From assembly GCA_017499595.2 (NCBI GenBank), contig CM038998.1, forward strand, positions 310,001 to 374,000: 64,000 nt of DNA. Reading direction: 5' to 3'. Below the pieces are notes generated by a model. The model ran no database searches. It worked only from the letters and a program-made list of their open reading frames with translations, and was not told the DNA's origin. Shown one piece after another: positions 7,207 through 40,162 of the stretch; the first letter of the stretch is position 1; each line of letters opens with the position of its first letter. A program made the position numbers and the translations under genes. This DNA comes from Psilocybe cubensis. Lineage: Eukaryota.

Positions 7207-7836
7207 GGTGGTAACAAAAGAAGGGACATCGGACAACAGCTGTGGTATCCTCTCTATATGGGTAAAACTCGCTATGTGCGTGAGAGTGACTGTGGTAGCA
7301 ATTTGCTTTCCATTGAAATGGTTGAGCGAGTTCGCTGGGTTGGTGAGTAATTTTGTCCACGTGCTGTTCGCATGGACGACGGCTATCTCAGTCCCCGGCA
7401 TCCGGATAAACTTTAAACAGCTTTGAACCAAGCCTCAACTTTGTTGTTGAATGAATTGGTATTGACCAATAGTGGGACTTACATTATTGTTTCGGGACCT
7501 GCCAAAGACTTAACAAGAACAGGAAGATCTTTGAGGGAAGAAAGGCGAGATATTAGTTTGTGCTTGGTGTTGTAGGATTCGGTTCTAACAGATTCATTGT
7601 AAGCTGCATTAACTTTGTAGGAAAATTTCCAAGCAGATAACTATGTATTAGTCAAGAATTCTGAATATTGTACGAGGCAAATACGTCACTCTATCAAACC
7701 CACAATATTGTGGCTATAGGTAGTTTATAAAAGGAGATTAATATGACACGTTAATTGAATATCCCTGGAAAGTCTTTTAATTTTGTCACAGGAACGTTTA
7801 TCCAGTGGGTGCTATCCGACATGGGATATAATACCA

Positions 7837-9139
7837 CTAATTATCACCCATTATCTTACCCTTCTTCCCAACTTTTTTGAAAACCCGATGTACCAGTCCT
7901 TTGCTCTTCCCTCGAACTGTGCCTGAAGATGTAGACATGTTCTGAATTTCAGTAGAGGTACGGGAATGTGGGTTATCCCCTTGCTGAGTATCCAATTCTT
8001 CAGATGAGGCATCCCGATTGGGACCGGGGCCCAGGACGGTAGGTGGGTTAAGATCCTCTTGTGAAAAACTGGAAGGGGCATCAGCACACATAGTATTATT
8101 CTGCAGCATAATGGAAGGGGAGCTAGGCATGTTCGCTGCTGTCAACAAATTTGGTGCCGATGAAGTCGAGGCTCCTCCGTGGATGGCCCCAATCACCGTT
8201 GTTGAGGTGGCTGTCTGACTGAAGTCACCATATATTCTCCCTGAATGCTGGTTGTTTGTAAAAGATGTGTTGTGTTGTCCACCCTCAAGGCTGTCCACAA
8301 CAAGTTCCATACTGAACTCGTCTGAAGCTTCCGGAGCAGGCATTCCTGGAGAAGGATAACGTATTGCGCGTTCTTGTGATATTCGAAGCAGCGATTCATC
8401 GCTGAAAGCTGGGGATGTGTCGTTCTTCCACTTAGGTGAGTGAGAACCTGACAAAACTAATTAAATTATATATTGTAATCAGGATGTGAATTTACCTTTT
8501 CCATTTGTAAACTCGGTGCCCATCCCAATATCCGATGGGCGTTGTGCTGTTGACGGTGGTCGTAATGCTCCAGAAGATCCACTGGTCACAGTATGCGATG
8601 GTATGGGACTCCTTGGTATCCTAAAGCTTTCATTTGTTTGTGGGCGTAGACCTCCATCTTAGTAGATCAATTAACAATAGATAATGATAAAGATTGCGAT
8701 TTTACTTACCTCTCGGGGGCACACCCTGTGATGGCGAGCTTGACTGTGATCCTGAAGAATAATCATATAGATCACCACCAATAGCTTGAAAATTTCCATT
8801 GGTTATCTTGAAGTTGCTTGCGCCTTCAAAATATTTTACCGACGACGATTGTATCGGTCTTGTACCAGGCCTTTGTGGCATAGGGCTTGGTGGCAAGCCC
8901 GACGAAGGTGGTGACCTGATATAGTAGGCATTTCCACTGACTGCAGAGAAATCCCCTCCATTGATCTCAAACCCGGTACTGTTTGTGAAATACTCCACTC
9001 CACTCTGATTTCCCTGGGTCCTGGATCTGTTGTTGTAATACAAATCTTCTGTGACGGATTCTTCGTCAGAGGAGAAGTCATCATCCTCATCCTCGTCTTG
9101 GTGAAAATGTAGATCATTTCGATTGGTCCGATGGTGCAT
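7837..9139 (-). CDS. Low-complexity protein with two motif-A putative amyloid signalling motifs (3 exons)
   Basis: Starts MHHRTNRN. YFTNSTGFEINGGDFSAVSGNAYY at ~8921-8992 and YFEGASNFKITNGNFQAIGGDLYDY at ~8759-8833. Two phase-1 GT-AG introns join it in frame to ORF 7837-8454. No globular domain is recognisable. Confidence 0.75.
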
Positions 9140-9977
9140 AGCGCGCACGTCGAGGAGGGTTGTAAAAGCTTTCAGCTGATGATGGTGGTGGTGAAAGGGA
9201 ATTTGACGCCCAGTGGCAAGGTGACATGCTGCCTGTCCCACGGTTCTTGGATTTGACTCATTCTTAATTTACGACATGGCTATGAAGGGTCGATCCCTGT
9301 AAATAAAACAAGGCAACCACAGCCTCACGAACCAATGTGACTTCCAAAATTTGGCATCAACTTGTATTAGGCATAACTCGTTGTGATTAAAGGCTGTTCT
9401 GATGCAATTCAGTTTGTGCTTACCAAAACGGACGGAATAGGATGAATGCAATTTTGAGTGGCTCGTTAGGTAGTAGGCACCCTTCTCAGGACCGTTCGGC
9501 TACAATAAATGTGTCCTCGCTATTGACTTGGACATTGAATTGAAGGAACGGATGCCAGCTGCTACATTTTACTCTATGGATTAGGGCTCAGAAAGCTACT
9601 ATCCGCGGGCACCCGGCGACAAAAGGAAGAGAGCCTTTTGGTCATACTGCAGTTGCGGGTTCTTCCTCGGTGGGGTTGATGTGTAACTTGTTGAATTGCA
9701 CCGTGTAATAGTCGATAGTGGTGGTGGCTATGCATTTGATCAACAACATATTTCTTTCGGGATGAGCAGGGATAGAGATTGTGACACACTTACGGGACAT
9801 GCGATAATCTTTCTGTCCCGAATCATTATCGGGACAGAATGGAACGGGTACCGGCAGAGCTGGAGTACGTTTGTGAAGTTGAGTTTTTGTGGGATTCGAA
9901 CTGGAGGGAGAAAATGCTTGTCTACTCCCTGCTTCTCCACATTTCCTGTCTATTGAATACGACAGATATATCAGTTC

Positions 9978-10409
9978 CTACTCAATATTGTAACGCGCTT
10001 TGAGGGCTTTACGTTTTCGTGACCTTTGGTGGCTAGTATTTGCAGAGCTTACTTCTCCCTGACACGGAGAGTGAGACCCTAGATTTGGATCGACATCGAT
10101 AACGTCGTAGTGGTCACCATGAATATACGAAAATATTCCATCCTTTATTTGAAAATGAGAAAGGTTTTTGAAGCGAGAGGTATTGGTGTGGGATGTCTTT
10201 CGCTTGTTTCTTCGCCTGCTAACATCTCTATCTGATGGATGACATTGATAAAAGTTTCCTCCAATAGATGAGAAGTACCCCCCATCGATCACAAAGTTTG
10301 TGGCCCCAGTGAAATTCTCGACCCCTGGGCGGCGAGGAGGCAAGCCTGGAGGAGATTCGTCATTCGCGCCCCGGGTTCCGTGGTATCCAACATCACCTAT
10401 TGTTGTCAT
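9978..10409 (-). CDS. Small protein with two motif-A putative amyloid signalling motifs (3' end uncertain, may splice on toward ~9600)
   Basis: Starts MTTIGDVG. NFTGATNFVIDGGYFSSIGGNFYQ at ~10245-10316 and RFKNLSHFQIKDGIFSYIHGDHYDV at ~10101-10175. Candidate splice donors lie near the 3' end of the ORF. Confidence 0.65.
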   Translation of the reverse strand: MTTIGDVGYHGTRGANDESPPGLPPRRPGVENFTGATNFVIDGGYFSSIGGNFYQCHPSDRDVSRRRNKRKTSHTNTSRFKNLSHFQIKDGIFSYIHGDHYDVIDVDPNLGSHSPCQGEVSSANTSHQRSRKRKALKARYNIE

Positions 10410-10897
10410 AATTTGCTGTAGGTGGGAAGAGTTATTCAATAGGACTTGATAACGGTTGTTTATAAAGAAATTTGTTAGCGTGCCCGTCCAGAGATGCCAG
10501 TGGTTGTAATGTGCCACTTGAACACAGTTTGCACTCTGCCTTGAACACCTGGAAATATCACAAATTTTACCATCACGTGATTCGAAGCCGGAACAGACGC
10601 GTCGAGCGACGCAACGGTACTAGACCGCGAGAGGGTCAATGAGAGTCAGGTATTTACTTTAACAACATTCATACCAAATATCTTTATGTAAATTTTCTTG
10701 ACTGAATCCACGCTCCTCACTATTTAGATAAAGTATGCAAAAACAATTTATTACCTTTGTGTAAATGAATTTCCAGTAGTTCATTTACACAAAACCAAAT
10801 TTATTATAAATGCACATATGTAATCTACATGCATCTTCTATTTACTTCTTTGAGGATATACGCCGTGCTAGCAAGGGTACTTTCAGCAAGGTGCTTG

Positions 10898-12739
10898 TTA
10901 TGTTAACTGCCACCTACCAGATTTTCGCTTCTGTTTGGAAGTAACATTCCCAGAGTTAGTTATGTTGATGTTTGCAATGTTTCCGCTATTAATGTTGTGA
11001 ACCGAAATAGGAGTATTCCCAGATGGTATTGTCTGATGGCTCGCATTGGGCATGGATTGGTGAATATACGAACTTGGGTACAGAGGATGTGAATAAGATT
11101 GAACCGACGGAGAATGAGGTGCATACTGTAATGCTGAGAAGGTGGAGCCATACTGATAACCTGCTTGCCAGGGACCGATTGAACCCGGATATCCCAGAAT
11201 GGTCTGTGCGAATTGGTTACTGACATTGTCGACGGCCGGAGAATGGGCTTTTGGCGAGGTCGTTTTGGGAAGCTCGGATTTCGGTGGCTTTTGCGATTGT
11301 TTCTTTGGAACAGGAATGTCTGGCTCCGTCTCGTACTCTGAGCTATCTCCACTTCCCACCTCAGAGCTCCCTTCACTAATATCTAGTGATCCCATTTTCT
11401 GCATAAGTTCCTCAATTCTCCGACGCTCCTTTTTGTATCGTCGTTCTAGTTCCCTCTTTCTCTTCGTCTCGCTGTTTATTGCATCCTGGATTCTCCTTGC
11501 CTCTTGTTTTGCTTGCAGTTCGGCTTCTATCTCCAACCGACATTGGAGTTCAATTTTTGCGCGCTCCTCCGCTCTGATTCGCTCCAGAGCCTCTCTTTCC
11601 TCGAGTTGCTGACGGGATCGCTCTTGCTGACGCTCGCGCAAGGCACTCTCTTCATCATCCCTTCTTCGCCTAAGGTCGTCTGCCACTTGAATTCTTAATA
11701 TTGAGTTCTGCGCGTCCAGCTCCTCGATTCGTCGTTGCTGGGAAATAATCTCTTCCTCCGCTGCAGCTTGCTGCCTTCTACGATTGTCTTCCTCTTCTTG
11801 CAATCTTCTAACCTCTTGATGAAGTCGTGCCTCGCGCTCTTGCGCATCTATGCGTTGGTGAACTTCCTCGATGTCATGCCGTGCCTTCAGAAGTTCTGCT
11901 TGTCTCCGTGCCTCCTCTTCCTTCATTTGATTTTGCAATATCAAGCTTAGTGCATCATGAAGGCTCAGGTGAGAGGATACCTAGAAAAGTTTCTGACAGT
12001 TAATTGAAACTCGGATATACAATATTCGTAATGTACCTCGAACATATCTATGGCCGTTTTCAATCGTTGTCGGAACTCCTCTATCTTTCCGGCATCTGCG
12101 GCACTGTAGACCAGCCTTGTCACCTTTCCCCGCCTGAGCTGCTTGTTGATAGCAGCTTGTATGTCTGCCAGTGTTCTTTGAAATCTTATCAAATCCGGAG
12201 TATAACAGTATGAAACAAGAACGCGTACCTTACAAAGTCGTCAATCACAGCTTTGATATCCTGTGGAGGCCAATTGTCTTTGTTAGGTGAGCGCTGGTAG
12301 GCAGAGTATACTGTTGTGATGAACTCCATCGCTTCTTGACCAAGTCTTTCGAAAGCGATTTTGTTCTCTTTCACTGTCTGTCAAGTAAGGTGTCAATGTG
12401 GAGAACATGATGAAAACTATTAAAAATACTGACTTGAATGATCTCAACGATTTTGAGCGTAGCACCCGCAGCCTGCTTTAGGTAAGGAATCGGAGCCAAA
12501 GATGATGCTTCCTTGACGATGTTCAGTAGTACAGATCCTCCATTAAGCGTTGTGTCGATCCAATTGTGTTCTTCCCCAGTTTCTGGGCCCATTGGTACCT
12601 TCGATGTTGACGAAGCCGCAAATTGCAAGGTAGTAAACATGCCACCGCCCGTGTCAATGCCTTTTCCAGGCTTGACCTTGCCTTTTCCTTTGTTATTCAT
12701 AGACGAATCATGGGTATCGACAGTGCTGAGGGCGTTCAT
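10898..12739 (-). CDS. MLKL-like N-terminal domain + long coiled coil + C-terminal motif-B putative amyloid motif (4 exons)
   Basis: Spliced sequence LLNIVKEASSLAPIPYLKQAAGATLKIVEIIQ|TVKENKIAFERL...|RTLADIQAAINKQLRRGKVTRLVYSAADAGKIEEFRQRLKTAIDMFE|V is typical of basidiomycete MLKL_NTD. An E/R/Q-rich coiled coil of ~190 aa follows. The C-terminus has NINSGNIANINITNSGNVTS at 10937-10996. Confidence 0.82.
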
Positions 12740-13285
12740 GATACAAATCGCTGATACAAAACCAAGTGGGGAGACAGTTAAAGAGAGACGGGAGGTATCC
12801 CGTCACACGGCTGTCTATCTCATCTCATCTCATTGACATTGTTCATTCGGATTATCCATAAATAGTATAAGAGAGCTGTGCATTCATTATCAGAAGCGAG
12901 GCGGTACCATAGTGATAATAGGCAGATCAGGTAGGCGGATCGTGATCGACACGGGTATATATATATACAAGGAGAGATATAAGTACAAGGGCGTCAAGAA
13001 GCCATTAGAAGAACAATGAGCATATGCTATGTGGACAGTGGCATCAAGGGAAGGGAAGAGTGCCAAGCTTCCCGTTAGTCAACCGCATCATCGCAAGAGC
13101 CGATTTACGCAGAATAAATGTACAAAACCCATGAAGTCGTCAAATATCCACTGGATAATTTCTTTGAAGAAAGTGTATGTGGTGCCCCAGAATTCGTAAA
13201 TGCGGTGATGATTTTGAATACACAAAAGTTATTGTACGAAGCCAGGACATGCAGTGGAAATACATTTATACCGTGACCTATATTA

Positions 13286-15059
13286 TTAGGGCCGTAGCTC
13301 ACGTCCTAGTTTTCGCCGAGCTAGAGTTATCCAAAGAAGTATTATTTCATGCAGCTAAAAAATTCAAACAAAAGCACCTACTTTGAATCGTGGTCTCCCT
13401 GATGGAATAATCATTATTCGAATCCTTGATCAGCGTGTTGGTGGTATTCCCAGAGCCCACATTGAGTATTCGTGAAGACCTGTCCACGTATTCGTAGTTG
13501 CCGTACACGACATTCACATTGGGACTTCCGTTGATGGTAGCCCCGCCAAAATCAAAGGCAGCTTTAGCAGAAAGTGTATTGCCTTTGTAGTATCCTCGGG
13601 ATCGAGCGGAGGTAACGCGTTGAGCCCCATTTTGGTGATCGTGAATTGAAGAAGAAGAGGGACGAAGGGAAGACGCGTTTGGACTAGGAACGCCTGCATC
13701 GACAGACTGTCTTGATTGTGAGGGGATATCCTGACTACGGAACCCAGCAGAAGGGGTAAATGTTTGAGAAACGTTGTCATAATGGCGAAGTACTGTTGGA
13801 TGTGCAGGAAAGCCAGGGTTCGCACCAGAATATGGTGGGAAGACGCCCTCGTTGAGCGATAATTTCGCAACGCCGTTTGGAAGATCTGCCATTCGAACGT
13901 CCTCGTCGCCAGTACCCGGTGATTCTGCGTCAACATATTCATCTTCTTCCTCATCCTCGGAACCGACCACACCCCCTTCAGCCATCTCTTCTTCCGCAGG
14001 CGCCGTAATGTCTTCGGAAGACTGAGATTGACTATCGGAATCGGAATCGGAATTAAATTGCGATGTTTGTTGCTTGACCATTGCCATGAGTTGATCCAGG
14101 GTTTGCATCATCATCGGGTCCACGATTGGTTGGATGTCATGAGGCTGGTACTGGGCACTGGAAACTGAATGACCGTGTGTTCCATTCATACTGACATTTG
14201 ATTGACTGGCAAGAGATTCTCTGACTTGAGAATGAACCATCTGTCGGATAGCTTTAGCAGTCTTTCTTTGAACACCGCGGGCAGGCGTATCCGCAGAGTG
14301 ATCGACTGAGTGTGATCGTTCGTCAGCGTTGCTTTCGTCGTCTTGAAGAATGCGTATACATTCAGCAGAAGCCCTCTTAAGGATATAGCAACGTACCTTC
14401 AAAAGCCTTTATCTGGGACCTTGATGCTTTTGCGAGTCGATGGGCACGGGGTGGGGATCCTGATACGAAAAATTAGTGGAGCTGCAATATAGGTGAGTGG
14501 CGACAAGTACCATAACGTTCTGAGTTGTCGTTATTGGAGTTTCGTATCCGTTGGTTTTTTACGTTATACGAATCCACGTTAGAGATATCGAGACGACCGT
14601 TCGAAGACGCCAGTTCAACCTGTTGGGCATGGAGCATTGGATGCATCATCGGGGGCGGAAAGTACGATGCCACTTCAGCATCTTCATCTTCCTCTAGAGT
14701 TGAGAACTGGCGTCAAATCGAGTCACCGATTTCATTGTGAGCAGAACATACGTGGAACATCATCCACCTGTGGTGCACTGCGACCTTGATCATTCCTATG
14801 TTTGGACTTTCGGTTTCGACCGTCTAAACGAGGTCGATCAGCACCTTGGAACAAAGTACACAATAATCGATTACCGACATGACACAAAAGAGTTGTCGTT
14901 GTGAGAGTTCAAAGTTGCGGTGTTGTTCGAATTGAAGGAGTTGATGTTGGAGACTTTGCGACTTTGGTCGATAACGGTGTAATTGCCCTTCACATTGTTG
15001 AAGGTTCCTCCAGTGATAACGACGTTCTTCGCACCGCTGAAGAAGGTAGCGCCCGACAT
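13286..15059 (-). CDS. Domain-less protein with multiple putative amyloid motifs (A+B, B, A-like+B); 6 exons
   Basis: ORFs 14871-15059, 14473-14673 and 13347-14402 join in frame through five phase-1 GT-AG introns. N-terminus MSGATFFSGAKNVVITGGTFNNVKGNYTVIDQSRKVSNINSFNSNNTATLNSHNDNS; ends ...TRRKLGRELRP*. Confidence 0.75.
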
Positions 15060-15806
15060 TATCGATCGTCAGGTTCTCAGGAGCTGCGACAGTAGATGAT
15101 GGAGGATATAAAGAGAGCTTACAGTACGAGCGCCTCGCCATCATTAGTATGCTCCTGGAATAAAACATCACACCGTCACGAGTTTGTACCTCCCCATGTT
15201 GCATAGCATCGACACAGCCTTACGAGCATTGTGCTCTTTTTGAGAAAGGTAGGCCGAAAACAGGCGAAAGTATATCCTGTATGTGTGTCTCGAAAGGTTG
15301 GCCACAAGGACTTAGTTCACAGGCTGTTGAACAGCATGTCATTTTTGTCTGTGATGGTAGTCGGTTAATACAAACAGAAATACAAGGCGGTGATGAACGG
15401 GTGAGTCGATGTGACTGTACCTTACCTGGACGGCTGTTTAGGAACATGAAAAAGGTGTGTTCAAAATAGTAGAATGAGCAGGTTTGATGGCAGAAAGGTG
15501 CCTGAGCATACGCCAGCATCAGGGAAGTGGACAAAACTTGGAGAAATCTCAAAAACTTTGGTTGAACCAACAACATTGAATCGGAGCTTGATCTGAATGC
15601 GGATCAAAGGTCCACGAGGTCAACGGCAAACTCCGAATAATGAACTTGTGAATAGTATTTGATTCACGACACTCTCCACCTAGAATAATTGGACTGTTGC
15701 AAGAAGACTTCACTTATATAATATGAAAAATGTGTACCAAAATTAATTCCTGAAATCCGTACTAAACCAGGTGGAAGTTCATAAAACACCCAATAAAAAC
15801 TAGAAA

Positions 15807-28426: not shown

Positions 28427-29688
28427 TCATACCGTGCGTTTGTGCAATGATTATGCTGTATCTTATCTTGTATACCTATCCAATGGTCAGCCCCTTCGAG
28501 TTGTTCGTCCTTTCGTCAATATAAGAGACTATCACGTGTGATTTTTCTAATATAAACAACCTTGCATTTGAAGGTGTGACGAAGAAGCAATATCACATCA
28601 TCCTGAGCCTTTGGAAACGATATTAATTGAAGGCGGAACGCGAATCCATTGGAGCTTCTCTATTCATTTCGACCATGACTTCAATTCGAGACGCATCAAT
28701 TGAGCAACCGCGTTCCACGGCTTCCTCCTTGAAGAACCACTTTGTACCCAGCTCTGGAAACCAGCCTGATATTTCATATCACCCAGATCGTGAGAAGTGG
28801 ATCCAACGCACTGCGTGGAGGCTGGCACAGGACCCTTCTCTCTTGTCTACTCCTTTACCAGCCGGTTTTCCAAACAAACTCCAATCGCCCTTGGTATGGG
28901 AAGGAAAGGACTGGAAAAACGAAGCTCAATGGGTTTACACTCTCACTTCCGACCATTTGAAGGAGATAGACAATGCTCTCCGTCATTTTCACGGTGCGAG
29001 ATTTAACTCAATCTTAGGTATGGGGAAGTAGTTAATCGAATCTCTTTTCTGTCGATAGCTCTAGGAGTGCCATATGGGCTCATCTCTCCAGAAACATTCC
29101 CCCTGCCTACCCTTGGGCCCATTTTAACGGATCTCGCTTACGAGCTCCATGAAGGTCGAGGGTTCTTTGTTTTGAGAACCATACCCGTCGACTCTTACTC
29201 ACGACTCGATAATGTCCTCATCTACGCTGGTATATCATCATATGTTGGAGGTACGAGAGGACTTCAAGATAAAGACGGTGGTGTCCTTTCCCATATAAAA
29301 GATCTATCCCAGTCGCATTTAAAAGGCGCTATTGGTGGTCCTGCCTACACGACCGATAAGCAGGTGTTTCATACCGACCAGGGCTCCGATATTGTGTCAC
29401 TTTTTGCACTTCAGATAGCTGCAGAAGGTGGTGTATCCAGGATAAGCAGCAGTTGGAGGGTGTATAATGACCTCGCGGAGAACCGCCCTGACTTGATTCA
29501 AACCCTCGCTCAGCCATGGGTAGTAGACGAGTCAGAATTCTGTTTTGTTTGTTCAAATACCTGTGCTAAAGACAATTGCATATGCTAGGTTCGGACGGGA
29601 TCCTCCTTTCACAGAGAGACCTCTTCTTTATCATCTGGACTCCAAGATAATTATTCAATATGCACGCCGATACTTCACCGGCTTCCAA

Positions 29689-29871
29689 TGTCATGATATG
29701 ACCACACACGTGATCCCGCGCTGTTATCCTCCTTCGTAGATACAGTATATCCTTTAGCTTTGACCACTTCGTTATTAGGTATGTACTACTGGTACATACT
29801 CCATTCTTTATATAACTTCGTTATTAGGTTACCTTTCGTGCTGCATTGCAGACCACAGTGAGAACCTTACA
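29689..29871 (+). repeat. 5' LTR (183 bp)
   Basis: tgtcatgatatg...gagaaccttaca; identical to 35522-35704 on base-by-base reading. Confidence 0.97.
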
Positions 29872-29959
29872 CTTGGTCAAAGCTCTTATACGTTCAACCC
29901 GTTTCCTTCCGGAGAAATTTTTTTTTTCGGCATTTGCGCCTTTGGGGCTTCTTTCCAGC

Positions 29960-31114
29960 ATGCCGGATGGGAATTCCACTACGATAGGAGAGGGCGAGCA
30001 TCCGCCGCCACCCCCCACGATCACCAATCCTATTGCGCAGGAGGTTTATACGGCCTTGGAGGTGTTGCTTGCACCCAGGTTGTCCGAGTTGGAGCGAGGC
30101 CTGGAGGAGGCGGCAGAGGGTTTTTCTCGTCTAGAGGTGCAGAACCAGGAACTCCGCGCTGCGTTGGCGGCAACCGAGCAACGACTTGATGCCGTGAGCG
30201 CCGCTCGTGCTCGTCCCTCTCGGATGCCGAAAGTTAATCCTGCCACGGTGTTTGATGGGACAAGCAAACAGAAAGCGGAGGAGTGGGTTCAGCAGATATC
30301 GGTTAACCGCCACTTTGAGGAGTTTTCCAATGATGCGCAGTGTATTCTATGGGCGCAGTCTTATCTATCTGGGCAGGCATACTCGTGGTCGGCAGTCATT
30401 ACACTCGGCGACGCAGAGGGTGGAAATTCCGAACTCCGTGAAAATTGGGATGCATATCTGGCAGCATTCAAGGCCACATTCTGCTCTCGTGACTCGGCAC
30501 GCGATGCTACACAGCGCCTCTTGGGCTTCAAGCAGGGCCAGAAATCCGATACCCAGTACATTACTGAGTTCCGCGAGTTGGTTGCTCGGTTGCCAGTAGC
30601 AGATAGGACTGGGACATTTGTGGATGCGTGTTTCTGGGCTGGTTTGTCTTTACAAACCAAGCAGCTTCTGGCTCACTCAGACTTCAAGGGGGCAGAGGAA
30701 GCCCAGGCAATTCTTTTGCGTCGCGAAACACGACATGCAGACATTGCAGCAGAACTACGACGTCACGCTCCTCACCCACACCGCAGTCCTGCAGTGCCTA
30801 CACCTGCTATTGCACGGTCAGCTTTACCTTCAGGAACTCATGCTGTTCAACCCCGCCCTGCTCAGGCATCCCTTCCTCCTGCTCCACGTGATCCTAATGC
30901 TATGGATGTTGATGCGGCCCGGCACTTACCTCGGAAATGCTATCGATGTGGAGAGAGTGGTCATGTTCGTGCCAACTGTCCATCTACTGTTGCTCGGCTG
31001 CGGGCAGGGCTTTTAGAGGAGGTCACAAAGGTGCTTGAAGCACATGGATTGGGAACAGTTTCCTCCGAGCCACCCATAGCGGAACCTGCAGCCCCCGAGC
31101 CGGGTTTTGTGTAG
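29960..31114 (+). CDS. gag: Retrotransposon Gag
   Basis: MPDGNSTT...FDGTSKQKAEEW...FKQG...YITEF, then DPNAMDVD and the CCHC zinc knuckle CYRCGESGHVRANC. Confidence 0.95.
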   Translation: MPDGNSTTIGEGEHPPPPPTITNPIAQEVYTALEVLLAPRLSELERGLEEAAEGFSRLEVQNQELRAALAATEQRLDAVSAARARPSRMPKVNPATVFDGTSKQKAEEWVQQISVNRHFEEFSNDAQCILWAQSYLSGQAYSWSAVITLGDAEGGNSELRENWDAYLAAFKATFCSRDSARDATQRLLGFKQGQKSDTQYITEFRELVARLPVADRTGTFVDACFWAGLSLQTKQLLAHSDFKGAEEAQAILLRRETRHADIAAELRRHAPHPHRSPAVPTPAIARSALPSGTHAVQPRPAQASLPPAPRDPNAMDVDAARHLPRKCYRCGESGHVRANCPSTVARLRAGLLEEVTKVLEAHGLGTVSSEPPIAEPAAPEPGFV

Positions 31115-31116
31115 GG

Positions 31117-34100
31117 TTGCCTTGCCTTGTCGCTGCAAGTGCAACCCAGAACAGGTTTTCTGTACTTACGCCTCCAAATAAATTGGTTTTGACTGGTCCA
31201 AATCAGACTGTGCCTCGCCGCCGTCGTTGTCGGACCCGCCGTGCAGCTGTGATTCATGCTCGTTCTCCTCGATCACAGTTTTCTTCCTTTGAAATTCCAA
31301 TTACTATTCATGTACACAAAACCGCGACACCCAATGTGCCTACCATTATTGATACTAGGGCAATGCTAGATTCGGGCGCTAGCTGCTGTTTCATTAATCC
31401 ACGTTTTGTGGAGCAACATGGCCTAATTTCAATCCCAAAGAAGAGGAGCCTCCGTTTGCGCACAATTGACAACTCTGAAATCAAGTCGGGTCTTATCACT
31501 CATGAAGTCCACCTCAAGGTTTTCATCGACTCACATTCGGAATTGCTAGTATGCGATGTTACTGATATTGGGGATGACAACCTTATATTTGGGATTAACT
31601 GGCTACGGCGACACAATCCGGTGGTAGATTTTGACCGCTCTACCTTGGATTTTACTTCGGAATACTGCAGGCAGAGGTGCTTACCTTTGCCGGAGGCCAT
31701 AACTGCTGCAGCTGCTTCACCTTCACCTGGAAGGCTGCGTAAGCGACTGCTAGAAAGGCAACGCCGCCGTGCACGCCAGCACGCACGGGAGGCGAGACGT
31801 ACTGGGTTGGAAGTTGAGGCTGATGATGTGGAGAGGTTGAAGCTGTTACATCCAGTCCGGCAAAAACCAGGCCGTAAGACACCTCACACGCATAGCCAGT
31901 GCCGCCAAACCAACACATGTGGCGCTACGGGCCGACTTCGCATTCGGAGGGAATCTCTGCACTTTTTAAAATGTTCGCGTGCAAGTTGGACACAGATGAC
32001 ACGTGACCTACAGGCAGATGCACTTCGTGTTGCACATGCAGAGATTGCAAAAGCTTTGGAGCATGCAGTGCAACAAGAAGAGGCAGGTGGGGTGGTTGAG
32101 GGTGTGTCCTTGGAACAGTGCTGGGATGGAGAATCACACCGTGGATGCCAGGGGCCAGGTATTCGTGCTGCCGCCAGTCATTCAGTATCACAGCGCCTGG
32201 CAGAGGCTGCAACTCCTGCAAAAGCTACTGGCTCAGTTGAAGATTTAGTGCCTGCAGAGTTTCACGAATTTTTGGATGTCTTTGATAAGGGTCGGTCCGA
32301 ACGGCTTCCGGCCCATAAGCCCCATGATTTGGCGATTGAGTTAGAGGGCAATGTGCCACCTCCTGTTGGCAAGCTATACCAGATGTCAGCAGCAGAGCTT
32401 CGGGCACTGAAGGAATTCATTGATGACAACCTCAAGAAGGGTTATATACGGCCCTCCAAGGCCCCGTGTGGAGCTCCTGTTTTCTTTGTCAAAAAGAAGG
32501 ACGGATCTCTCCGTCTTGTGGTGGATTTTCGTGCACTCAATGCCATCACGCGGCCCGATGCATACCCAATTCCTCTCTCCGCTGAACTCCTAGACCGTCT
32601 CAAGGCAGCAAAGGTTTTCACTACCTTAGACATGCGATGGGGTTACTACAATGTGCGCATACGGGAAGGTGATGAATGGAAGACTTCTTTCCGGACCCGT
32701 TATGGCCAATTTGAATTTTTGGTTATGCAGTTTGGTCTTCGCAATGCTCCGGCTGCCTTTCAGCGCATGGTTAATGATCTATTCCATGACCTTGTCGACA
32801 TTAATGTGGTACTCTACCTGGACGACATTATTATCTTCTCTCAAGACCCTTCAAAACACGACGAACAGGTTAAGGAAGTCTTGCGTCGCCTTCGGAAAGC
32901 AGATCTGTTTCTGAAACCAGAGAAGTGTCAGTTCCGCACGACAGAAGTGGATTATTTGGGATTTCGTATCTCACCTGGTTGTGTTGGCATGGACCCAGTC
33001 AAGGTCAGCGGGGTAACGGATTGGCCAGTGCCACGCAATGTTCGGCATGTTAGTCGCTTCCTTGGCTTCTGTAACTTCTATCGCCGCTTTATTGCAGACT
33101 ATGCCAACATTACCCGCCCACTGGAGAATTTGAAGCGGAAAGACATGGCTTGGAGGTGGGGTGATGTGGAGCAAGCGGCGTTTGCACAGTTGAAGCAAGC
33201 ATTTATACAAGCACCAGTATTGATGCTGCCGGAAATGGAGGCGCCATTCCATGTTGAGACGGATGCATCAGATTTTGCTGTAGGAGCCATCCTGTCGCAG
33301 AAGGATGCAGCTGGTGATTGGCGCCCCGTGGCTTACTTTTCAAAGGCTATGCAACCCGCAGAGCGCAACTATGATGTTCACGACAAGGAGTTGTTAGCTG
33401 TTGTGCGTGCTCTTGAAGTCTGGCGACCATACCTGGAGGGCAACCCCTTCTGTATTGATATATTTTCTGATCATCGCAACCTGGAGTTCTTCATGACAGC
33501 TCGTGATTTGAATCGCAGACAGGCGCGGTGGAGCCTTTTTTTGAACCGTTTTGTCTTCAAGATCCACCACCGGCCTGGCCGTTTGAGTGCAGGTCCAGAC
33601 GAGTTGTCTCGTCGTGCTGACCACATCCACGGGATGGCCCGTGACAATGCTGCTATGGAGATCTTGCCAGCAGAGAGGCTGGGGCAGGATTCCAATGATG
33701 GTGGTGGTGGTACGGTGTTGGGAAAGCGAGGTGTGGTGCTGGAGCTGCGTTGTTGTGGTATGTCCAAGGTGGTGGCTAGGGTGGGGCAAGTTATACGTGC
33801 CGACAAGGAGATTATGGACAGGATACGTACAGTGTCTCGTAAGGACCCCAAGTTGGATCTCATGTGGGATTTACCTAACGCTCCCGGCCTTGTTCAACGT
33901 CGGCTGAAGGACTTTGTGGTGGATGATGGCGTGGTGCGGTTTCGTGGGCTGGTGTATGTGCCCAATGACGAGGAATTGAAGCGTTGGATTTTGCAGCTGT
34001 ATCACGATGCGATCCCGGCAGGCCACCCTGGTATCTCAAACACGCTGGAGCTGGTGTCACGGAACTACTATTGGCCAAGGATGTCAGAATTTGTTGCTCG

Positions 34101-35367
34101 GTATGTTGATGGATGTGATACTTGCCAACGCACCAAGCCCCGTCGACAGAAACCCTATGGAAAGCTACAACCCCTTGAGGTGCCTGCAGGTCCTTGGCAG
34201 CACATTTCCACCGATTACATTGGGCCGCTGCCACCATCGCAGGGATACGACGCGGTTCAGGTGGTCTGTGACAAGTCAACAAAGCGTGCCCACTTCCTTC
34301 CGGCACACACCACCGATGGTGCAGTAGAAATGTGTGACACCTTCATAGACCGGGTATGGTCTTTGCATGGGACTCCCAAGAAGATTGTGTCGGACATGGG
34401 GCCACAATTTATTGCGAAATACACAAAACGTTTGTGGGAACGTTTGGGTATTAAGCGCGCGATGTCATCCGCTAATCACCCACAAACCGATGGTCAGACA
34501 GAGAGGGTTAATCAGGAATTGGAAATTTACCTGCGCGCGTACGTCGACTACTACCAGGACGACTGGGTGCAGTGGCTTCCCTTTGCAGAGTTTGCCTACA
34601 ACAACAGACACCATACAGCAATAGGGATGTCCCCATTTTTTGCTGAATACGGCTATAACCCATCGTTTTCCGTGGATCCTGTGAATTCGCAATCAGTTCC
34701 ACGCGCCGACGAGAGGCTGGAGCGCATCCACAGGGTGCAGGGCGAGCTGCAGGCAATTCTGACACTCACCGCGGAGAGGATGAAGAAATTTCACGATGAT
34801 TGGGTGGATGAGGCACCCGACTACATCCCTGGTGATCGTGTCTTCTTGGAACGCTCTGACCTGCGCTCATCGCGCCCTAACAATAAATTGGATTTTCGTC
34901 GTTTTGGGCCTTTCCGTATTGCACAGAAAGTCTCCGATTCTGCATATCGATTGGAGTTGCCTGCTGGTTGGGCCATTCACGATGTTTTCCATGTCTCGTG
35001 CTTGATCCCAGCTCGTACGGACACCATTCTGGGCAGACGACAGTTGCCGCCGCCGCCTGTGTTAATGCCCGGCGGCGAAGAGCGTGAAATTGAGCGCATA
35101 CTGAGGGAGCGGCGGACGAGGGGTGGTGTTGTGGAGTTTTTGGTGAAGTGGCTTGGGTTTGACGAGAGCGAAAACGAGTGGATTCCAGAGTACGGCATGC
35201 AAAATGCACGCAGATTGGTGGCAAAGTTTCGTCGGGAGGAAGCTACGAGGGGTAAGGTCAAGATTTCGCGCAAACAGGGAGTCTCACGACGGGTGAACAC
35301 AGAGGGAGGGGCTGTGGAAGGGGTGTTGCAAGGACGTCGTCGAGGGCGTCCTAGGACAGTTGGCTGA
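31117..35367 (+). CDS. pol: Retrotransposon Pol (protease, RT, RNase H, integrase, chromodomain), probably translated by -1 frameshift from gag
   Basis: Protease LDSGAS, RT YLDD, RNase H ETDAS...DKELLA, integrase H...GHPG...CDTC and SDMG/QTDGQTER, chromodomain EIERIL...FLVKWLGFDESENEWIP. Uninterrupted 1416-codon ORF. Confidence 0.97.
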   Translation: MPCLVAASATQNRFSVLTPPNKLVLTGPNQTVPRRRRCRTRRAAVIHARSPRSQFSSFEIPITIHVHKTATPNVPTIIDTRAMLDSGASCCFINPRFVEQHGLISIPKKRSLRLRTIDNSEIKSGLITHEVHLKVFIDSHSELLVCDVTDIGDDNLIFGINWLRRHNPVVDFDRSTLDFTSEYCRQRCLPLPEAITAAAASPSPGRLRKRLLERQRRRARQHAREARRTGLEVEADDVERLKLLHPVRQKPGRKTPHTHSQCRQTNTCGATGRLRIRRESLHFLKCSRASWTQMTRDLQADALRVAHAEIAKALEHAVQQEEAGGVVEGVSLEQCWDGESHRGCQGPGIRAAASHSVSQRLAEAATPAKATGSVEDLVPAEFHEFLDVFDKGRSERLPAHKPHDLAIELEGNVPPPVGKLYQMSAAELRALKEFIDDNLKKGYIRPSKAPCGAPVFFVKKKDGSLRLVVDFRALNAITRPDAYPIPLSAELLDRLKAAKVFTTLDMRWGYYNVRIREGDEWKTSFRTRYGQFEFLVMQFGLRNAPAAFQRMVNDLFHDLVDINVVLYLDDIIIFSQDPSKHDEQVKEVLRRLRKADLFLKPEKCQFRTTEVDYLGFRISPGCVGMDPVKVSGVTDWPVPRNVRHVSRFLGFCNFYRRFIADYANITRPLENLKRKDMAWRWGDVEQAAFAQLKQAFIQAPVLMLPEMEAPFHVETDASDFAVGAILSQKDAAGDWRPVAYFSKAMQPAERNYDVHDKELLAVVRALEVWRPYLEGNPFCIDIFSDHRNLEFFMTARDLNRRQARWSLFLNRFVFKIHHRPGRLSAGPDELSRRADHIHGMARDNAAMEILPAERLGQDSNDGGGGTVLGKRGVVLELRCCGMSKVVARVGQVIRADKEIMDRIRTVSRKDPKLDLMWDLPNAPGLVQRRLKDFVVDDGVVRFRGLVYVPNDEELKRWILQLYHDAIPAGHPGISNTLELVSRNYYWPRMSEFVARYVDGCDTCQRTKPRRQKPYGKLQPLEVPAGPWQHISTDYIGPLPPSQGYDAVQVVCDKSTKRAHFLPAHTTDGAVEMCDTFIDRVWSLHGTPKKIVSDMGPQFIAKYTKRLWERLGIKRAMSSANHPQTDGQTERVNQELEIYLRAYVDYYQDDWVQWLPFAEFAYNNRHHTAIGMSPFFAEYGYNPSFSVDPVNSQSVPRADERLERIHRVQGELQAILTLTAERMKKFHDDWVDEAPDYIPGDRVFLERSDLRSSRPNNKLDFRRFGPFRIAQKVSDSAYRLELPAGWAIHDVFHVSCLIPARTDTILGRRQLPPPPVLMPGGEEREIERILRERRTRGGVVEFLVKWLGFDESENEWIPEYGMQNARRLVAKFRREEATRGKVKISRKQGVSRRVNTEGGAVEGVLQGRRRGRPRTVG

Positions 35368-35521
35368 CGTGGCCTGTGGTTCTTTTTTTTTCTCTTCCTC
35401 TCTTCTTTGGCGTGCCGGCCGTTCGATCTATTTTTAGTTTCTTTCTTTCTTTGATATTTCGTGCTTTCTTTTGTCTTTCTATTTCTCCTCTTCATTTCTC
35501 TGTCTTCAAGAGGGGGTGTGG

Positions 35522-35704
35522 TGTCATGATATGACCACACACGTGATCCCGCGCTGTTATCCTCCTTCGTAGATACAGTATATCCTTTAGCTTTGACCAC
35601 TTCGTTATTAGGTATGTACTACTGGTACATACTCCATTCTTTATATAACTTCGTTATTAGGTTACCTTTCGTGCTGCATTGCAGACCACAGTGAGAACCT
35701 TACA
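35522..35704 (+). repeat. 3' LTR (183 bp)
   Basis: Identical to the 5' LTR; preceded by the polypurine tract and followed by TCCAA. Confidence 0.97.
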
Positions 35705-36400: not shown

Positions 36401-37597
36401 ATGGCGTTACGCGATTTCACCAAGCCAGGCTCTTGGTCTTCTAGACTTTACGACATCCTACGACCTGCGCCACACCCAATGGCAATTCAATTCGGGAACA
36501 GTCAAAGCAAATCTCGTCATTCAGCTGGTGAACTCTGGAGGCATGTTTTATCTTGCTCGATTTATCACGATTTGGCGGGCGAGAAAGAAGAGATGCAACT
36601 CGCCCGCGGTAGGTCTTGGCGGAGATTTGTTAGAATGGAATGCATGGGCCTTAGTGGATTACTATTCTATGAAATCAACCCGCCTCTTTCTTCTGGTGAA
36701 AATTCGGAGTCAGTGGATGGTAGGATAGTAGCTCCTGCAGTCGAAAATTGCCAATCATCTGCCCTCAACTTGACCCTGGAAAGTGTCTTCGGCAATCCTG
36801 ACGATCCCGATGATTCTGGAATGGCGGTAGACGATTTACTGGATGCTGTTCATGCCCGCGTTGTCTACTTTCCAGCATATGCGTGTACTTCTTTCATAGT
36901 ACGTATCAATACTTGCTGAACATACCTCAACCTCACGTCCTTGTGCTAGACTGGACAGGCAATGGCTGCTTTCTTTCGCGATCAACCATCCTTCAGACCT
37001 CGCCCCGCTCCAGAAGGATTTTCAGTCCCCACTTCTCAGACTATGGAACTTATTGATGCAGCCTCGAAACATGACGTTCTTCCCTCCGAAATATCTGAAT
37101 CTACTGAGACACTATGTACAGAAGCGCATACGATGTCACTTTCTCCGTACTCGTGGCGGGCTATCTGTGGGGATCTTGCCGCTCTCGAAAAACTTGACCT
37201 TGATCCAGACGACCCGTACTCCGCACTCTGTGTTCGCACATCTTATAGCGTGCATAAGACTACCTCTTCTTCTCACGGTCTGTCGGATGAGGAAGATGGA
37301 AATGCAACGTTGTCTACTATTGATTCTACAGGTTCTTCGACGCCTCCACCTGCTTTGACGACAAGTTCAATGGCAACAGAGAGTTCTTTTTCCTTTAACT
37401 ATCATCCTTTCAGGCGTTCTTTGCCCATCTATGCAAAAGATCATTCTATCGGGTTTAGCATCTGGACTTTGAAGCCGTCTAGCACTTCCCCAGCAGTAGT
37501 AAATGAAGGCGAGACAGTCATTTCTGCAACGCATAGTGAAGACGGTTCCTTTCTTAATTGCTCATTGTCGTATGCCGAAATCAGTAAAACAAACTAG
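36401..37597 (+). CDS. Hypothetical protein (probably 2 exons)
   Basis: ORFs 36401-36919 and 36962-37597 can be joined by a short intron near 36885-36949. Ser/Thr-rich C-terminal half; no recognised domain. Confidence 0.5.
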
Positions 37598-37660
37598 TGC
37601 TAATTAAGGAAAGTCCAGTAGCATTGTACTTTATCTACCATTTCATATGTCCCACCACAT

Positions 37661-38668
37661 CTAATAAACTACCCCAGCCTCTTTCATCAAGTCTTTTACC
37701 TCGACGTCTATTGTCATAAAATTTTATTGAGATAAATCGTTTTATAAAGGTGATCACACCTACGGTCCTCGGTATGCTTCATTCGAGAAGCGAATAGGCA
37801 TGTCGATCCTAATAAAACAAACAATGAGTTTCAACGTCCAACAGATACCAACAGAATAGACAACTCTACCTGGTCCAAGAATAAACTCTCCTCCCAGCTG
37901 AGTGAATTTCCCTTGCTTTCCGACCTGCCATGGATGCTTAAATGGTCCCCTCTGCTCCTCAAATCAACCAATATCACATATGTAGGTATAATTCTCTTAC
38001 CCAGAGGCTCATCATGAGATTTGAAAAAGCGCTAAGTGTTAGATAGCTCCTTTTTACTTCGCCAACTGGAGTTTTCTCGAGGCTTTCGATGTCCATTCCT
38101 AGTGCATGATATAGCTTCAGACTCGGGTCTGCGAAAAAAAGCCCGTTGAATTTGGTTGCCTCTACGAACTCTTTTAGCATGGCGGTTTTGAGACGAATGT
38201 TTTGGGAGGTGGAAGTTGAATACCCTTGTAAGACTTAATTGGGCCATAACCTCCGCACCCTATCACCACAATTCGAGTGCTTGCCTGAGTCAGCGCCTCT
38301 TCCGGTACCGATGCCAGAGCCTCTACATATAGCTAAGAAAGGTGTAAGATTGAGGAATGGACGGGGTTGTGAAAGATAATCACACCTGGCAAGACTTTCA
38401 CCGACTTTAGCTGCGCAAATAAAACAAAATATTCCAACTGGCTTGTTACTCACCCCGCAAAAGAAATGTCCTTTGTAATTATTTTAGTTACCTTTCTCGA
38501 ATTAAACAGCATCTAGATGTTGTACTGCTCACTTATGAACACAACAATCGTTTTTTGCTCGGCAAAGATTGTGCTGAACTTGACCTTGTTGCCGTCAATA
38601 TCAAGTATGTCGCAATTTCCTGCTTCTTCAAGTGTCTTTTGATCAGGAAGCTCCTTTAAGTTTTTCAT
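37661..38668 (-). CDS. AhpC/TSA-like (peroxiredoxin-like, AhpC-TSA_2) thioredoxin-fold protein
   Basis: Spliced KTIVVFI|RHFFCG|xCQ|LYVEAL...IVVIGCG...FADPSLKLYHALG...QLGGEFILGP|G...RMKHTEDH|VEVKDLM. Confidence 0.85.
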
Positions 38669-38905
38669 GGAGGTGATGGTACGAGAAAACGAGAGGTGGG
38701 AATTGAGCGATACTTCGTGCTATTTTGGGCTTCTGTCAAGTCCTACTGACTGACTTAGGGGCTTACCATCATCAAGGGCACGTGCCATCCATGTCTCGAC
38801 GATTGTGGCAGCACGCCCGCTAAGACGTTCTCCATACATTTTCATCAACTCTTCTTAGCTTCCTGATTTCTTCAACCATCCAAAGCTTCAGATTCTCGAA
38901 TACAT

Positions 38906-40162
38906 ATGGCACTACCCTCCGCTGGTCCAGAGGCTCAAAATGCCCTCTTCGAAAATCATTCGGAATCTGAACACGTACCTCCAACGTTGAAACGAGCCGT
39001 GCTGCGGATGCAATTCCCCCCGTCGTATGTTCTTGTCGGTGTATACAGGCTATTTACAGACAAGAACCTATACAAACCAGCATGGGATAAATGTAAGCAT
39101 GCTACTAGGCGGGGCGCCATTGTAGGATCAATATGGGTGTGTTCAGTATTTTAAAACTTGAAGAAAGACCACTAATTGGTGCTCTCAAGGCCGCTCTGAC
39201 GTTTTCAATCCAAAAGAAGTTCATCGAAATATTTCTCTCAAAGTTTGTGTTGTGTGTATCTCGATATGTCTCGTTGACTGACAGATTGTGACTAGCTCTC
39301 CAAGAATTACTGGCTTGTCGAGAGATGACACAGTTTTCGGATACCACGTTCCTTTCAGTTTGTATACTTGTAAGCAACTTGATATGCCATTTTTGCTGCT
39401 AATATGTACCAATGATCCTGATCCTGCAGACGCAACAATAATGATTCTTGGATCTCAAGTCACCTATATCCTGCGGTTCTTCCTTAGCCGAAACATTCGC
39501 ATTGCACGCGACCGAGCATGGGACCAAACAGTGGCATCTCGAGGGAAGGGACCAGACTTTTGGCAGCCATACGTCGAAGAATGGGAAACTCCGCCAAACT
39601 TGAACCTCGAGACGAAACAGGATAAACTCATCAAGAAATGGCTAGGAGGGTGGTTCGGGCTTTTCGTCGTGAAGAGAGGTCAGTGCTACACATATTCATT
39701 CATATATTACCTTCATCCAACCTCCTCTAGTTCTTCTTTCACCCTTCCAGGTGTACCCATTTGTCGGGATGGTTGTGTCTGCCTGGTTCAAAGCTCTAGG
39801 AACTTCCCGGTTCCTACATCAACGGGTGAGATTATAACTCCCTTCTCTCCGTAGTTTTACTTACAAACTTATTGTGCCTTTTAGTATTTCCAAGCTAAGA
39901 AAATGACGGACAAGGAAATAGCAGTGTTCATGCAGGAGCGTAAATGGGACTATCGAATTTTCGGCTTTACTGCTGCTCTATTGGAAGGGATCCCCATTAT
40001 AGGACTTGTTTTCACGGTTTCAAATCGTGTCGGAGCAGCAATGTGGGCTCACGGTAAATTTTTTCCCTTTTTGTGCCTCACCCTCGCACTGATGGAATCT
40101 TCATAGATCTGGAGAAAAGACAACATTACATCGCCGAAGAGCGTGGTCGAAAGAAAAACTAA
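38906..40162 (+). CDS. EI24/Lds-like multi-pass membrane protein
   Basis: PPSYVLVGVYRL, hydrophobic segments, H(Q)R|YFQAK and FGFTAALLEGIPIIGLVFTVSNRVGAAMWA; ends DLEKRQHYIAEERGRKKN*. Confidence 0.7.

Follow-up and report, generated by a model that had tools for sequence, protein, structure and literature searches.

Gene Organization and Splicing of the Locus

A window of 64,000 nucleotides from Psilocybe cubensis (assembly GCA_017499595.2, contig CM038998.1, positions 310,001 to 374,000 of the forward strand) was analysed, and all coordinates below are those of the window. Four neighbouring minus-strand genes, g1, g2, g3 and g4, carry all copies of two short motifs, A and B, which an original prediction had described as parts of an amyloid relay to a death effector. 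The locus holds a conserved, expressed pair, a motif-rich scaffold (g1) beside a probably MLKL-like protein with the same motif (g2), together with two proteins that each carry two copies of A (g3 and g4, the double-A proteins). Judged from the sequence, it looks like a variant of fungal amyloid signalling without a receptor at the locus. The gene models were as follows.

13289..15059, minus strand: g1, scaffold or "adaptor" gene (JR316_0000078), about 497 aa, mostly disordered, six exons
14879-15059, 14752-14823, 14510-14693, 14397-14458, 13382-14341 and 13289-13320, minus strand: g1 exons, with five GT..AG skips (X10, X11)
10842..12739, minus strand: g2, candidate effector gene (JR316_0000077), about 560 aa, five exons
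12434-12739, 12229-12377, 12034-12175, 10918-11977 and 10842-10867, minus strand: g2 exons, with four skips
9642..10409, minus strand: g3, double-A protein of 212 aa; exons 10013-10409, 9794-9949 and 9642-9727, with two skips
7837..9139, minus strand: g4, double-A protein of 400 aa; exons 8710-9139, 8494-8657 and 7837-8445, with two skips
about 7840-7914, minus strand: basic C-terminal tail of g4

The models were obtained by aligning contigs of four public sequencing runs to positions 7700-15300. Two of these runs, X5 and X6, are DNA, and X10 and X11 are probably RNA, which is a guess. The contigs of X10 and X11 contained 13 skips of 48-66 nt, 12 of which were of the GT..AG type on the minus strand and one of which had a 2-letter junction difference; none of the 13 was present in the contigs of X5 and X6. 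The frames of all four genes were open once the exons were joined. The genes are thus spliced on the minus strand, the GT..AG skips being found in the probable RNA runs. The last intron of g2 (10868-10917), which fits GT..AG, was placed on the basis of a single 14-letter loose end at 10918.

The exon translations were 100% identical to two hypothetical proteins, JR316_0000078 (P0001, 499 aa) for g1 and JR316_0000077 (P0002, 561 aa) for g2, with exon 1 of each gene a 100% match to its protein. The top library match of g4 was P0003 (86 bits). Since the genes are spliced, open and conserved, they are not pseudogenes, and a reading of them as pseudogenes or NOD-like receptor (NLR) remnants was rejected in view of the open frames after splicing, the conservation across species and the constraint on the motifs.

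The deposited proteins and the spliced contigs differed at 14694-14878, 12176-12237 and 10842-10918. Deposited g1 has exons 2-3 in another frame or extent. Deposited g2 uses an acceptor 9 nt upstream, which gives three extra residues, and reads through the last intron, which gives a different C-terminus. An in-frame GT..AG skip of 54 nt (11073-11126) was seen in the disordered part of g2 in one X10 contig; it may be alternative splicing, because an X11 contig continues through the same place unspliced. At 9099, in the acidic N-terminus of g4, and at 13761, in the disordered middle of g1, contigs of X5, X10 and X11 diverged into unlike sequence, which suggests a divergent allele or paralogue.

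Motif Copies and Their Statistical Support

All five A and four B copies of the original prediction were recovered on the minus strand, with coordinates and sequences unchanged, and a sixth, degenerate A (A') was recognised in g1.

14979..15044, minus strand: motif A of g1, residues 6-27 (hidden Markov model (HMM), leave-one-out)
14889..14948, minus strand: motif B copy 1 of g1, residues 38-57 (HMM); with A, it forms the N-terminal A+B composite
14521..14580, minus strand: motif B copy 2 of g1, in the middle of the protein (HMM, leave-one-out)
13494..13556, minus strand: degenerate A' of g1, directly before B copy 3 (by sequence reading)
13404..13463, minus strand: motif B copy 3 of g1, at the C-terminal end and before a basic tail (HMM)
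10937..10996, minus strand: motif B of g2, close to the C-terminus and before a basic tail (HMM and shuffle test)
10251-10316 and 10110-10175, minus strand: A copies of g3 (HMM)
8927-8992 and 8768-8833, minus strand: A copies of g4 (HMM)

Both motifs span 20-22 residues and are Gly- and Asn-rich; A has 22 residues and ends in G[DN] in all five window copies. HMMs were built from the copies first described and searched against 2604 six-frame open reading frames (ORFs) of the window. The A model matched only the five A copies (35.6-42.8 bits; next best 4.9), and the B model matched only the four B copies (25.4-35.9 bits; next best 5.4). A test on the training copies is circular, and a leave-one-out search was therefore run. 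Four of the five A copies then ranked first among the untrained ORFs, at 11.9-22.6 bits against a background of 4.9-7.0; the second g3 copy was not the top match (5.4 vs. 5.7 bits). This second g3 A is a homologous second repeat, because g3 and g4 align across the whole A-linker-A module. For B, three of the four copies ranked first, one of them marginally (7.7 vs. 7.1 bits).

The B copy of g2 was lost in the leave-one-out search, and a position-wise shuffle test was therefore applied to it. The three g1 copies supplied 20 column sets, and the g2 copy fitted 12 of them. This score was reached by 0 of 2000 shuffles of the whole protein, by 15 of 100000 when only the last 60 residues were shuffled and by 67 of 200000 when the 26-residue core was. 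Since the score is rare even among core shuffles, richness in Asn and Ser is insufficient by itself to account for the g2 copy. BLASTP of g1 against g2 gave an E value of 0.37. The four genes had been said to share the motifs and nothing else; this does not hold for g3 and g4, whose paralogy spans the A-linker-A module from end to end (blastp 36% over 96 aa, E 1.8e-11). Taken as sequence patterns, the A and B motifs are not chance.

Variation within the species was compared as well. Among the differences listed (40 of 104, with 34 in coding sequence), the motifs had one nonsynonymous and five synonymous variants, and the other coding sequence had 21 and 7, respectively (Fisher p 0.014). Two variants were seen in g2 B and three in one g4 A copy, and all five were synonymous. 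The one motif variant that alters the protein replaces Tyr with Asp in the first g3 A, and g4 has Asp at that position.

Conservation of the g1 Scaffold Family

No Pfam family was found in g1. Two full-length homologues, P0053 (Crassisporium funariophilum) and P0056, were 29-34% identical to it overall. Both had been retrieved through A only, and the B HMM trained on the window found B at the same three places in both. In the alignment of the three species, invariant columns made up 45 of 113 in the motif regions and 41 of 386 elsewhere (Fisher 1.8e-11), which bears out the expected conservation of the motifs above their flanks in homologues. The invariant columns numbered 25 of 60 for the three B copies alone, 14 of 22 for the g1 A, 12 of 20 for B copy 3 and 2 of 21 for A'. 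The position of B copy 2 was kept in P0053 and P0056 and in four metagenome loci described below (L001, L002, L003 and L005). Both motifs are, by this alignment, conserved within fast-evolving disordered sequence.

The A+B composite of the g1 N-terminus, about 55 aa long, recurred in other species. It was 46-63% identical to seven other N-termini, and several short proteins consisted of the same N-terminal composite. Moreover, g1 residues 16-57 aligned to the C-terminal composite of L002 and L003 (52% over 42 aa). The composite is thus also repeated at the g1 C-terminus. Because it is shared with other N-termini and recurs at a C-terminus, A and B are, in sequence terms, components of a single conserved module of about 55 residues; B is also found by itself. 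Two conserved islands outside the motifs were also seen in the g1 family, a Met/Leu-rich stretch and an LSLNE-type stretch (alignment columns about 244-261 and 321-340; P0001 residues about 225-245 and 300-320).

Linkage of g1 and g2 in Metagenome Loci

A metagenome scan with P0040 yielded five fungal loci holding g1 homologues. L001 to L003 had A and three B copies, L005 had two B copies, and L004 had A only, near its contig end. In L002, the g1 homologue was followed, after about 2.9 kb and with one other gene in between, by a same-strand gene colinear with g2. This gene had matching N-domain blocks with the same exon break, the coiled coil and a proline-rich stretch, and its C-terminus carried an NINSGN-type motif related to g2 B. 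The same g2-like gene was found in L001, up to the contig end. Each N-domain match was weak (E of 0.015, in a small database); the case for orthology lies in the colinearity in two loci and the coiled coil, plus the terminal motif in L002. Of the expected synteny of the cluster, the linked g1-g2 pair was seen, in L002 and L001; no double-A gene was found in the flanks of these loci, whose contigs stop at or inside the g2-like gene.

Sequence upstream of the g1 homologues (L001 300-990 and L002 2560-5940) matched window positions 36600-40060, about 21 kb away, and the relative orientation of these genes was opposite to that in the window. Since the upstream genes of L001 and L002 map to 36.6-40.0 kb of the window, the neighbourhood is, on sequence grounds, rearranged around a g1-g2 pair that stayed together.

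The Candidate Effector g2

From N- to C-terminus, g2 comprises a helical domain, about 190 residues of coiled coil, disordered sequence, a single B and a basic tail. A motif is thus found near the C-terminus of a candidate effector, with the gene of the scaffold that has three B copies adjacent. The two larger parts of the protein were placed as follows.

11965..12568, minus strand: N-terminal helical domain of g2, BaMLKL-like (P0002 residues about 58-203)
11380..11950, minus strand: long coiled coil of g2 (P0002 residues about 208-398)

A single-sequence AF2 model of P0002 showed four helices in the N-domain with a predicted local distance difference test (pLDDT) score of 40-60, which is low confidence, and one helix over residues 208-398 with a pLDDT of 77-94. 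Among the 30 ESM Atlas clusters nearest to g2, 22 were unnamed, and the three best (0.94-0.96) were basidiomycete. Six clusters carried MLKL_N; the best of them scored 0.93, shared 199 of 256 features and had MLKL_N on 36% of its members. Furthermore, when residues 30-208 of the g2 model were compared with a basidiomycete NACHT/TPR cluster of the Atlas, the N-terminal part of that cluster matched them with a template modelling (TM) score of 0.64. By language-model features and predicted structure, g2 therefore resembles basidiomycete MLKL-like N-domains, and its N-domain is likely MLKL-like. The MLKL-like effector first proposed thus received backing from the language-model and predicted-structure look-alikes (Atlas 0.93, TM 0.64) and none from Pfam, where MLKL_N was not matched.

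Pfam scans covered P0001, P0002 and the exons of g3 and g4 at E<=1 (E<=10 for P0002). The HET-s_218-289/HRAM, sigma and Ses_B models had no match in g1-g4 in these scans, and a sub-threshold row for Cas8b_C (E 0.13) was dismissed as chance. A sequence search of the PDB with P0002 returned six matches, all of them coiled-coil or other helical proteins (E 0.05-9.5).

The Motif-A Family in Agaricales

A profile of 31 columns from the five A copies was searched against 1.84 billion representatives with a cut-off of E<=1e-3. The search gave 68 proteins, 60 of them fungal-type. Six of ten that were looked up were named, all from Agaricales (Crassisporium, Hypholoma, Psilocybe cyanescens, Marasmius, Mycena and Hebeloma); accessions are KAF8167137 for Crassisporium, KJA19704 for Hypholoma and PPQ79738 for P. 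cyanescens. Two A copies were present in 33 of the 60; in 23 of the 33, the starts of the copies lay 42-53 residues apart, and this distance is 47 in g3 and 53 in g4. A started at residue 11 or earlier in 30 of the 60, and a basic tail ended many of the proteins, as it does g1, g2 and g4. The only Pfam family at E<=1e-3 among the 60 was Cthe_2159, in one member. On this sequence evidence, g3 and g4 are members of a large Agaricales family of domain-less double-A proteins with copies about 48 residues apart, and the locus thereby reveals an unannotated family of two-repeat proteins. A word-based homologue search with the window proteins returned only their own two proteins, its index being unsuited to short divergent motifs.

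The other eight of the 68 matches were set aside as unrelated repeat proteins. Six of them were scanned with Pfam (P0046 and P0070 lay outside the scan), and five contained unrelated families, namely Laminin_G, Beta_helix, choline-binding repeats and, in two proteins, DUF723/zinc ribbon; P0022 had none. Repeated stretches of the very large proteins P0028, P0046 and P0070 matched the first half of the A profile. P0028 carries Pfam Beta_helix elsewhere in the protein, and the length of the A motif equals that of a beta-helix rung.

Other layouts were observed within the family. P0055 (Marasmius sp., 606 aa) had a single N-terminal A ahead of a folded domain, about 550 residues in size, that has no Pfam family; its nearest Atlas clusters were basidiomycete, and some were named kinase-domain proteins. 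Because a folded domain follows A in P0055, motif A may tag globular proteins too. A subfamily of 180-300 aa (P0013, P0015, P0025, P0027, P0033, P0034, P0037, P0050, P0061 and P0062) had A first, then a half-B-like NS[FY]N[ND] and a second partial A near residue 110-130; its full-length members had a conserved Met/Arg-rich C-terminal block and a basic tail.

The structure of the double-A module of g4 was modelled by AF2 with a 25-sequence alignment. The mean pLDDT was 70.9, with values of 87-90 in the motif blocks and 55-58 in the linker. Both A copies had the same four predicted strands (residues 4-6, 14-16, 19-24 and 27-29 for one copy, and 57-59, 67-69, 72-77 and 80-82 for the other), offset by exactly 53 residues. 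This model is consistent with two stacked rungs. Foldseek rows for the FapC and HET-s amyloid structures were not counted as evidence (E about 8).

Comparison With Known Amyloid Signalling Systems

Amyloid signalling is well worked out in ascomycetes. The sigma cluster (NLR/SesA/SesB) has more than two clustered genes, one shared amyloid motif and a HeLo-like effector. RHIM signalling passes from RIPK1, TRIF or ZBP1 to RIPK3 and then to MLKL, and RHIM also occurs in IMD of Drosophila; the adaptors are not NLRs and stack in an amyloid-type manner. RIPK3 activates MLKL by phosphorylation, not by templating, and RHIM is one motif family. The P. cubensis locus would resemble this system in that non-NLR adaptors pass a signal toward an MLKL-type executioner. 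It differs in that the effector itself bears a motif and two motif families are present. The core patterns taken for RHIM, [IV]Q[IV]G, and for the ascomycete PP motif, N.G.Q.G, had no match in g1 to g4.

The NWD2/HET-S pair of Podospora anserina (PMC7889193) is like the present locus in having adjacent genes and a motif common to the N-terminus of the partner and the C-terminus of a helical, membrane-targeting effector. HET-S has two repeats of about 21 residues with a flexible linker between them (PMC7889193), which is reminiscent of the way A is doubled in g3 and g4. In contrast to NWD2, the partner g1 is disordered and lacks a NACHT or repeat domain, and two different motifs are used; moreover, the Pfam models of HET-s and HeLo were unmatched and the double-A proteins have no effector domain. 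The three-gene PP cluster of Chaetomium globosum (PMC12881547) likewise has more than two genes, a shared motif and a HeLo-like effector. Unlike the present locus, the ascomycete PP and sigma clusters use one motif and include an NLR.

Also comparable to motif A is a meta-family of amyloid-like motifs, NLR05/08/22/29/44, found at the N-termini of 689 NLRs, nearly all basidiomycete (PMC9815663). These motifs usually lie at the very terminus and have 17-30 residues, and the aligned instances of NLR05/08/22/44 from Gymnopus luxurians share three hydrophobic residues and a terminal G[DN] (PMC9815663). Motif A, at 22 residues, at the extreme N-terminus and with its G[DN] end, fits this verbal account, and it too comes from Agaricales/Agaricomycetes; the likeness is one of description only. 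According to the same study, the meta-family had 0 neighbouring and 0 effector-side partners, and BaMLKL proteins with C-terminal motifs, the effector class proposed here, occurred only in a few genomes, among them those of Moniliophthora roreri, with a motif of 18 residues, and Fibularhizoctonia, and never adjoined the NLR. Basidiomycete amyloid signalling is there presented as resting on motif statistics, with no effector partner beside any motif-bearing gene, and its authors speculated that many NLRs control one effector (PMC9815663). The published motifs are thus carried by NLRs without neighbouring partners; at the present locus, motifs A and B are carried by non-NLR proteins beside a candidate effector. 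Open-access text yielded no adaptor in fungal amyloid signalling, no later work and no motif strings.

Interpretation and Alternative Explanations

The preferred reading, to which a probability of roughly 45% is given, is that templated assembly through B links the scaffold g1 to the effector g2, and that A ties g1 to the double-A family. It builds on the genes and their splicing, the sharing and conservation of the motifs, the g1-g2 synteny and the strand prediction for A. A and B would each fold as a rung of beta-arch or beta-solenoid type, and A would stack on A, and B on B, between molecules. The g1 scaffold would join A-type assemblies, made by double-A proteins or by sensors encoded elsewhere, and would expose B rungs, on which the C-terminal B of g2 would be templated. 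The helical bundles of g2 would thereby be clustered and would act on membranes. The formation of amyloid, the direction and trigger of signalling and the resulting cell death are all suppositions of this scheme. If it is true, a non-NLR adaptor would take part in fungal regulated cell death, and its logic would be nearer to that of RHIM adaptors in animals than to that of the fungal two-gene model. The g1, g2 and double-A proteins are small enough for peptide, yeast or Podospora assays.

Several results weigh against templated assembly through B. The B copy of g2 was not recovered by the leave-one-out HMM, and the variant comparison covers 40 of 104 differences. The L002 orthologue of g2 differs in the second half of the motif and scored below 9 bits with the B HMM; L001 and L002 have another gene between the g1 and g2 homologues, and the absence of a double-A gene applies to flanks on contigs that both end at or within the g2-like gene. 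P0002 had no Pfam family at E<=10, MLKL_N (PF22215) included, its six PDB matches included no MLKL, and neither MLKL_N, HeLo, HET-s, sigma nor any other Pfam family was found in g1 to g4. The double-A model had no significant fold match: the two Foldseek rows had E values near 8, and none of the 48161 chains compared by VIA-align reached Z>=2. Nor was a receptor found. The long ORFs of the window contained no P-loop, and G....GK[ST] occurred only as two strings in short ORFs (six-frame, at least 60 aa); NACHT and NB-ARC were likewise absent by Pfam from 10 long window ORFs, so the statement that the window has no NLR holds. Motif A had also been placed at the N-termini of agaricomycete NACHT proteins; no such link was found, as 0 of the 60 fungal A matches at E<=1e-3 carried NACHT, NB-ARC or another P-loop domain, weaker matches lying outside this count. 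The locus is best filed outside any defined motif family, since no defining NLR feature was found and the Pfam profiles of such families did not match.

A full relay, in which A-only proteins (g3, g4) or A-bearing NLRs act first, g1 converts A amyloid to B amyloid and g2 is the executioner, is unlikely. It would agree with g1 being the sole protein with both motifs, joined in a conserved composite, and with the extreme N-terminal A in 30 of 60 proteins, which is where the NLR-side motifs NLR05/22 lie (PMC9815663). However, the A profile found no A-bearing NLR at E<=1e-3, nothing in the data sets a direction, and a double-A protein as upstream trigger would be unusual if the analogy holds with HET-s, whose two-repeat protein is the templated, downstream side. 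A bolder form of the preferred reading would make g1 a receptor-less disordered "converter" hub that joins the A fold, common to many sensors or to the double-A prion-like proteins, re-emits B and fires a BaMLKL executioner, with the double-A proteins as free-standing two-rung prion modules that act as amplifiers, buffers or decoys. This is doubtful; if true, it would explain hundreds of basidiomycete NLR-side motifs that have no co-localised effector.

It is also conceivable, and judged improbable, that A and B are short binding modules of a finite non-amyloid complex, built for instance by strand addition to a shared partner or as a condensate, with a role other than cell death, such as a coiled-coil tether and its regulators. 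Conservation and synteny imply functional constraint and not amyloid as such, g2 is mostly a 190-residue coiled coil without a Pfam death domain, and the family members are disordered, many with a basic C-terminal tail. Against such modules, Gly/Asn-rich motifs of 20-22 residues at protein termini fit the pattern of signalling amyloids, the strand patterns predicted in tandem copies about 48 residues apart are identical, and the modelled g2 N-domain resembles those of basidiomycete NLRs. Less likely still is an absence of any interaction, with the motifs reflecting common descent in a rapidly duplicating disordered family or remnants of NLR N-termini, and the g2 B a by-product of Asn/Ser composition. 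The tandem paralogy of g3 and g4, the internal duplication seen in the N- and C-terminal composites of g1, the failure of g2 B in the leave-one-out HMM and the BLASTP result for g1 and g2 would suit it. However, g2 B survives shuffling of its own core, the L002 orthologue, which also neighbours a g1 homologue, has a similar motif at its end, constraint is higher on the motifs than on their flanks, and the genes, being spliced, open and conserved, are not pseudogenes.

Other Features of the Window

The Pfam scan of the 10 long window ORFs identified a kinase, an aldehyde dehydrogenase, a malic enzyme and TauD, with sub-cutoff F-box-like and WSC matches. Just after the second TauD-like gene (29007-29588), a region at 29800-35400 was recognised by eye as retroelement-type, with an ORF at 31039-35367 (1442 aa) and a gag-like ORF before it. 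Identical short ORFs at 29697-29858 and 35530-35691 flank the retroelement-type ORF, and their sequence suggests that they are long terminal repeats.

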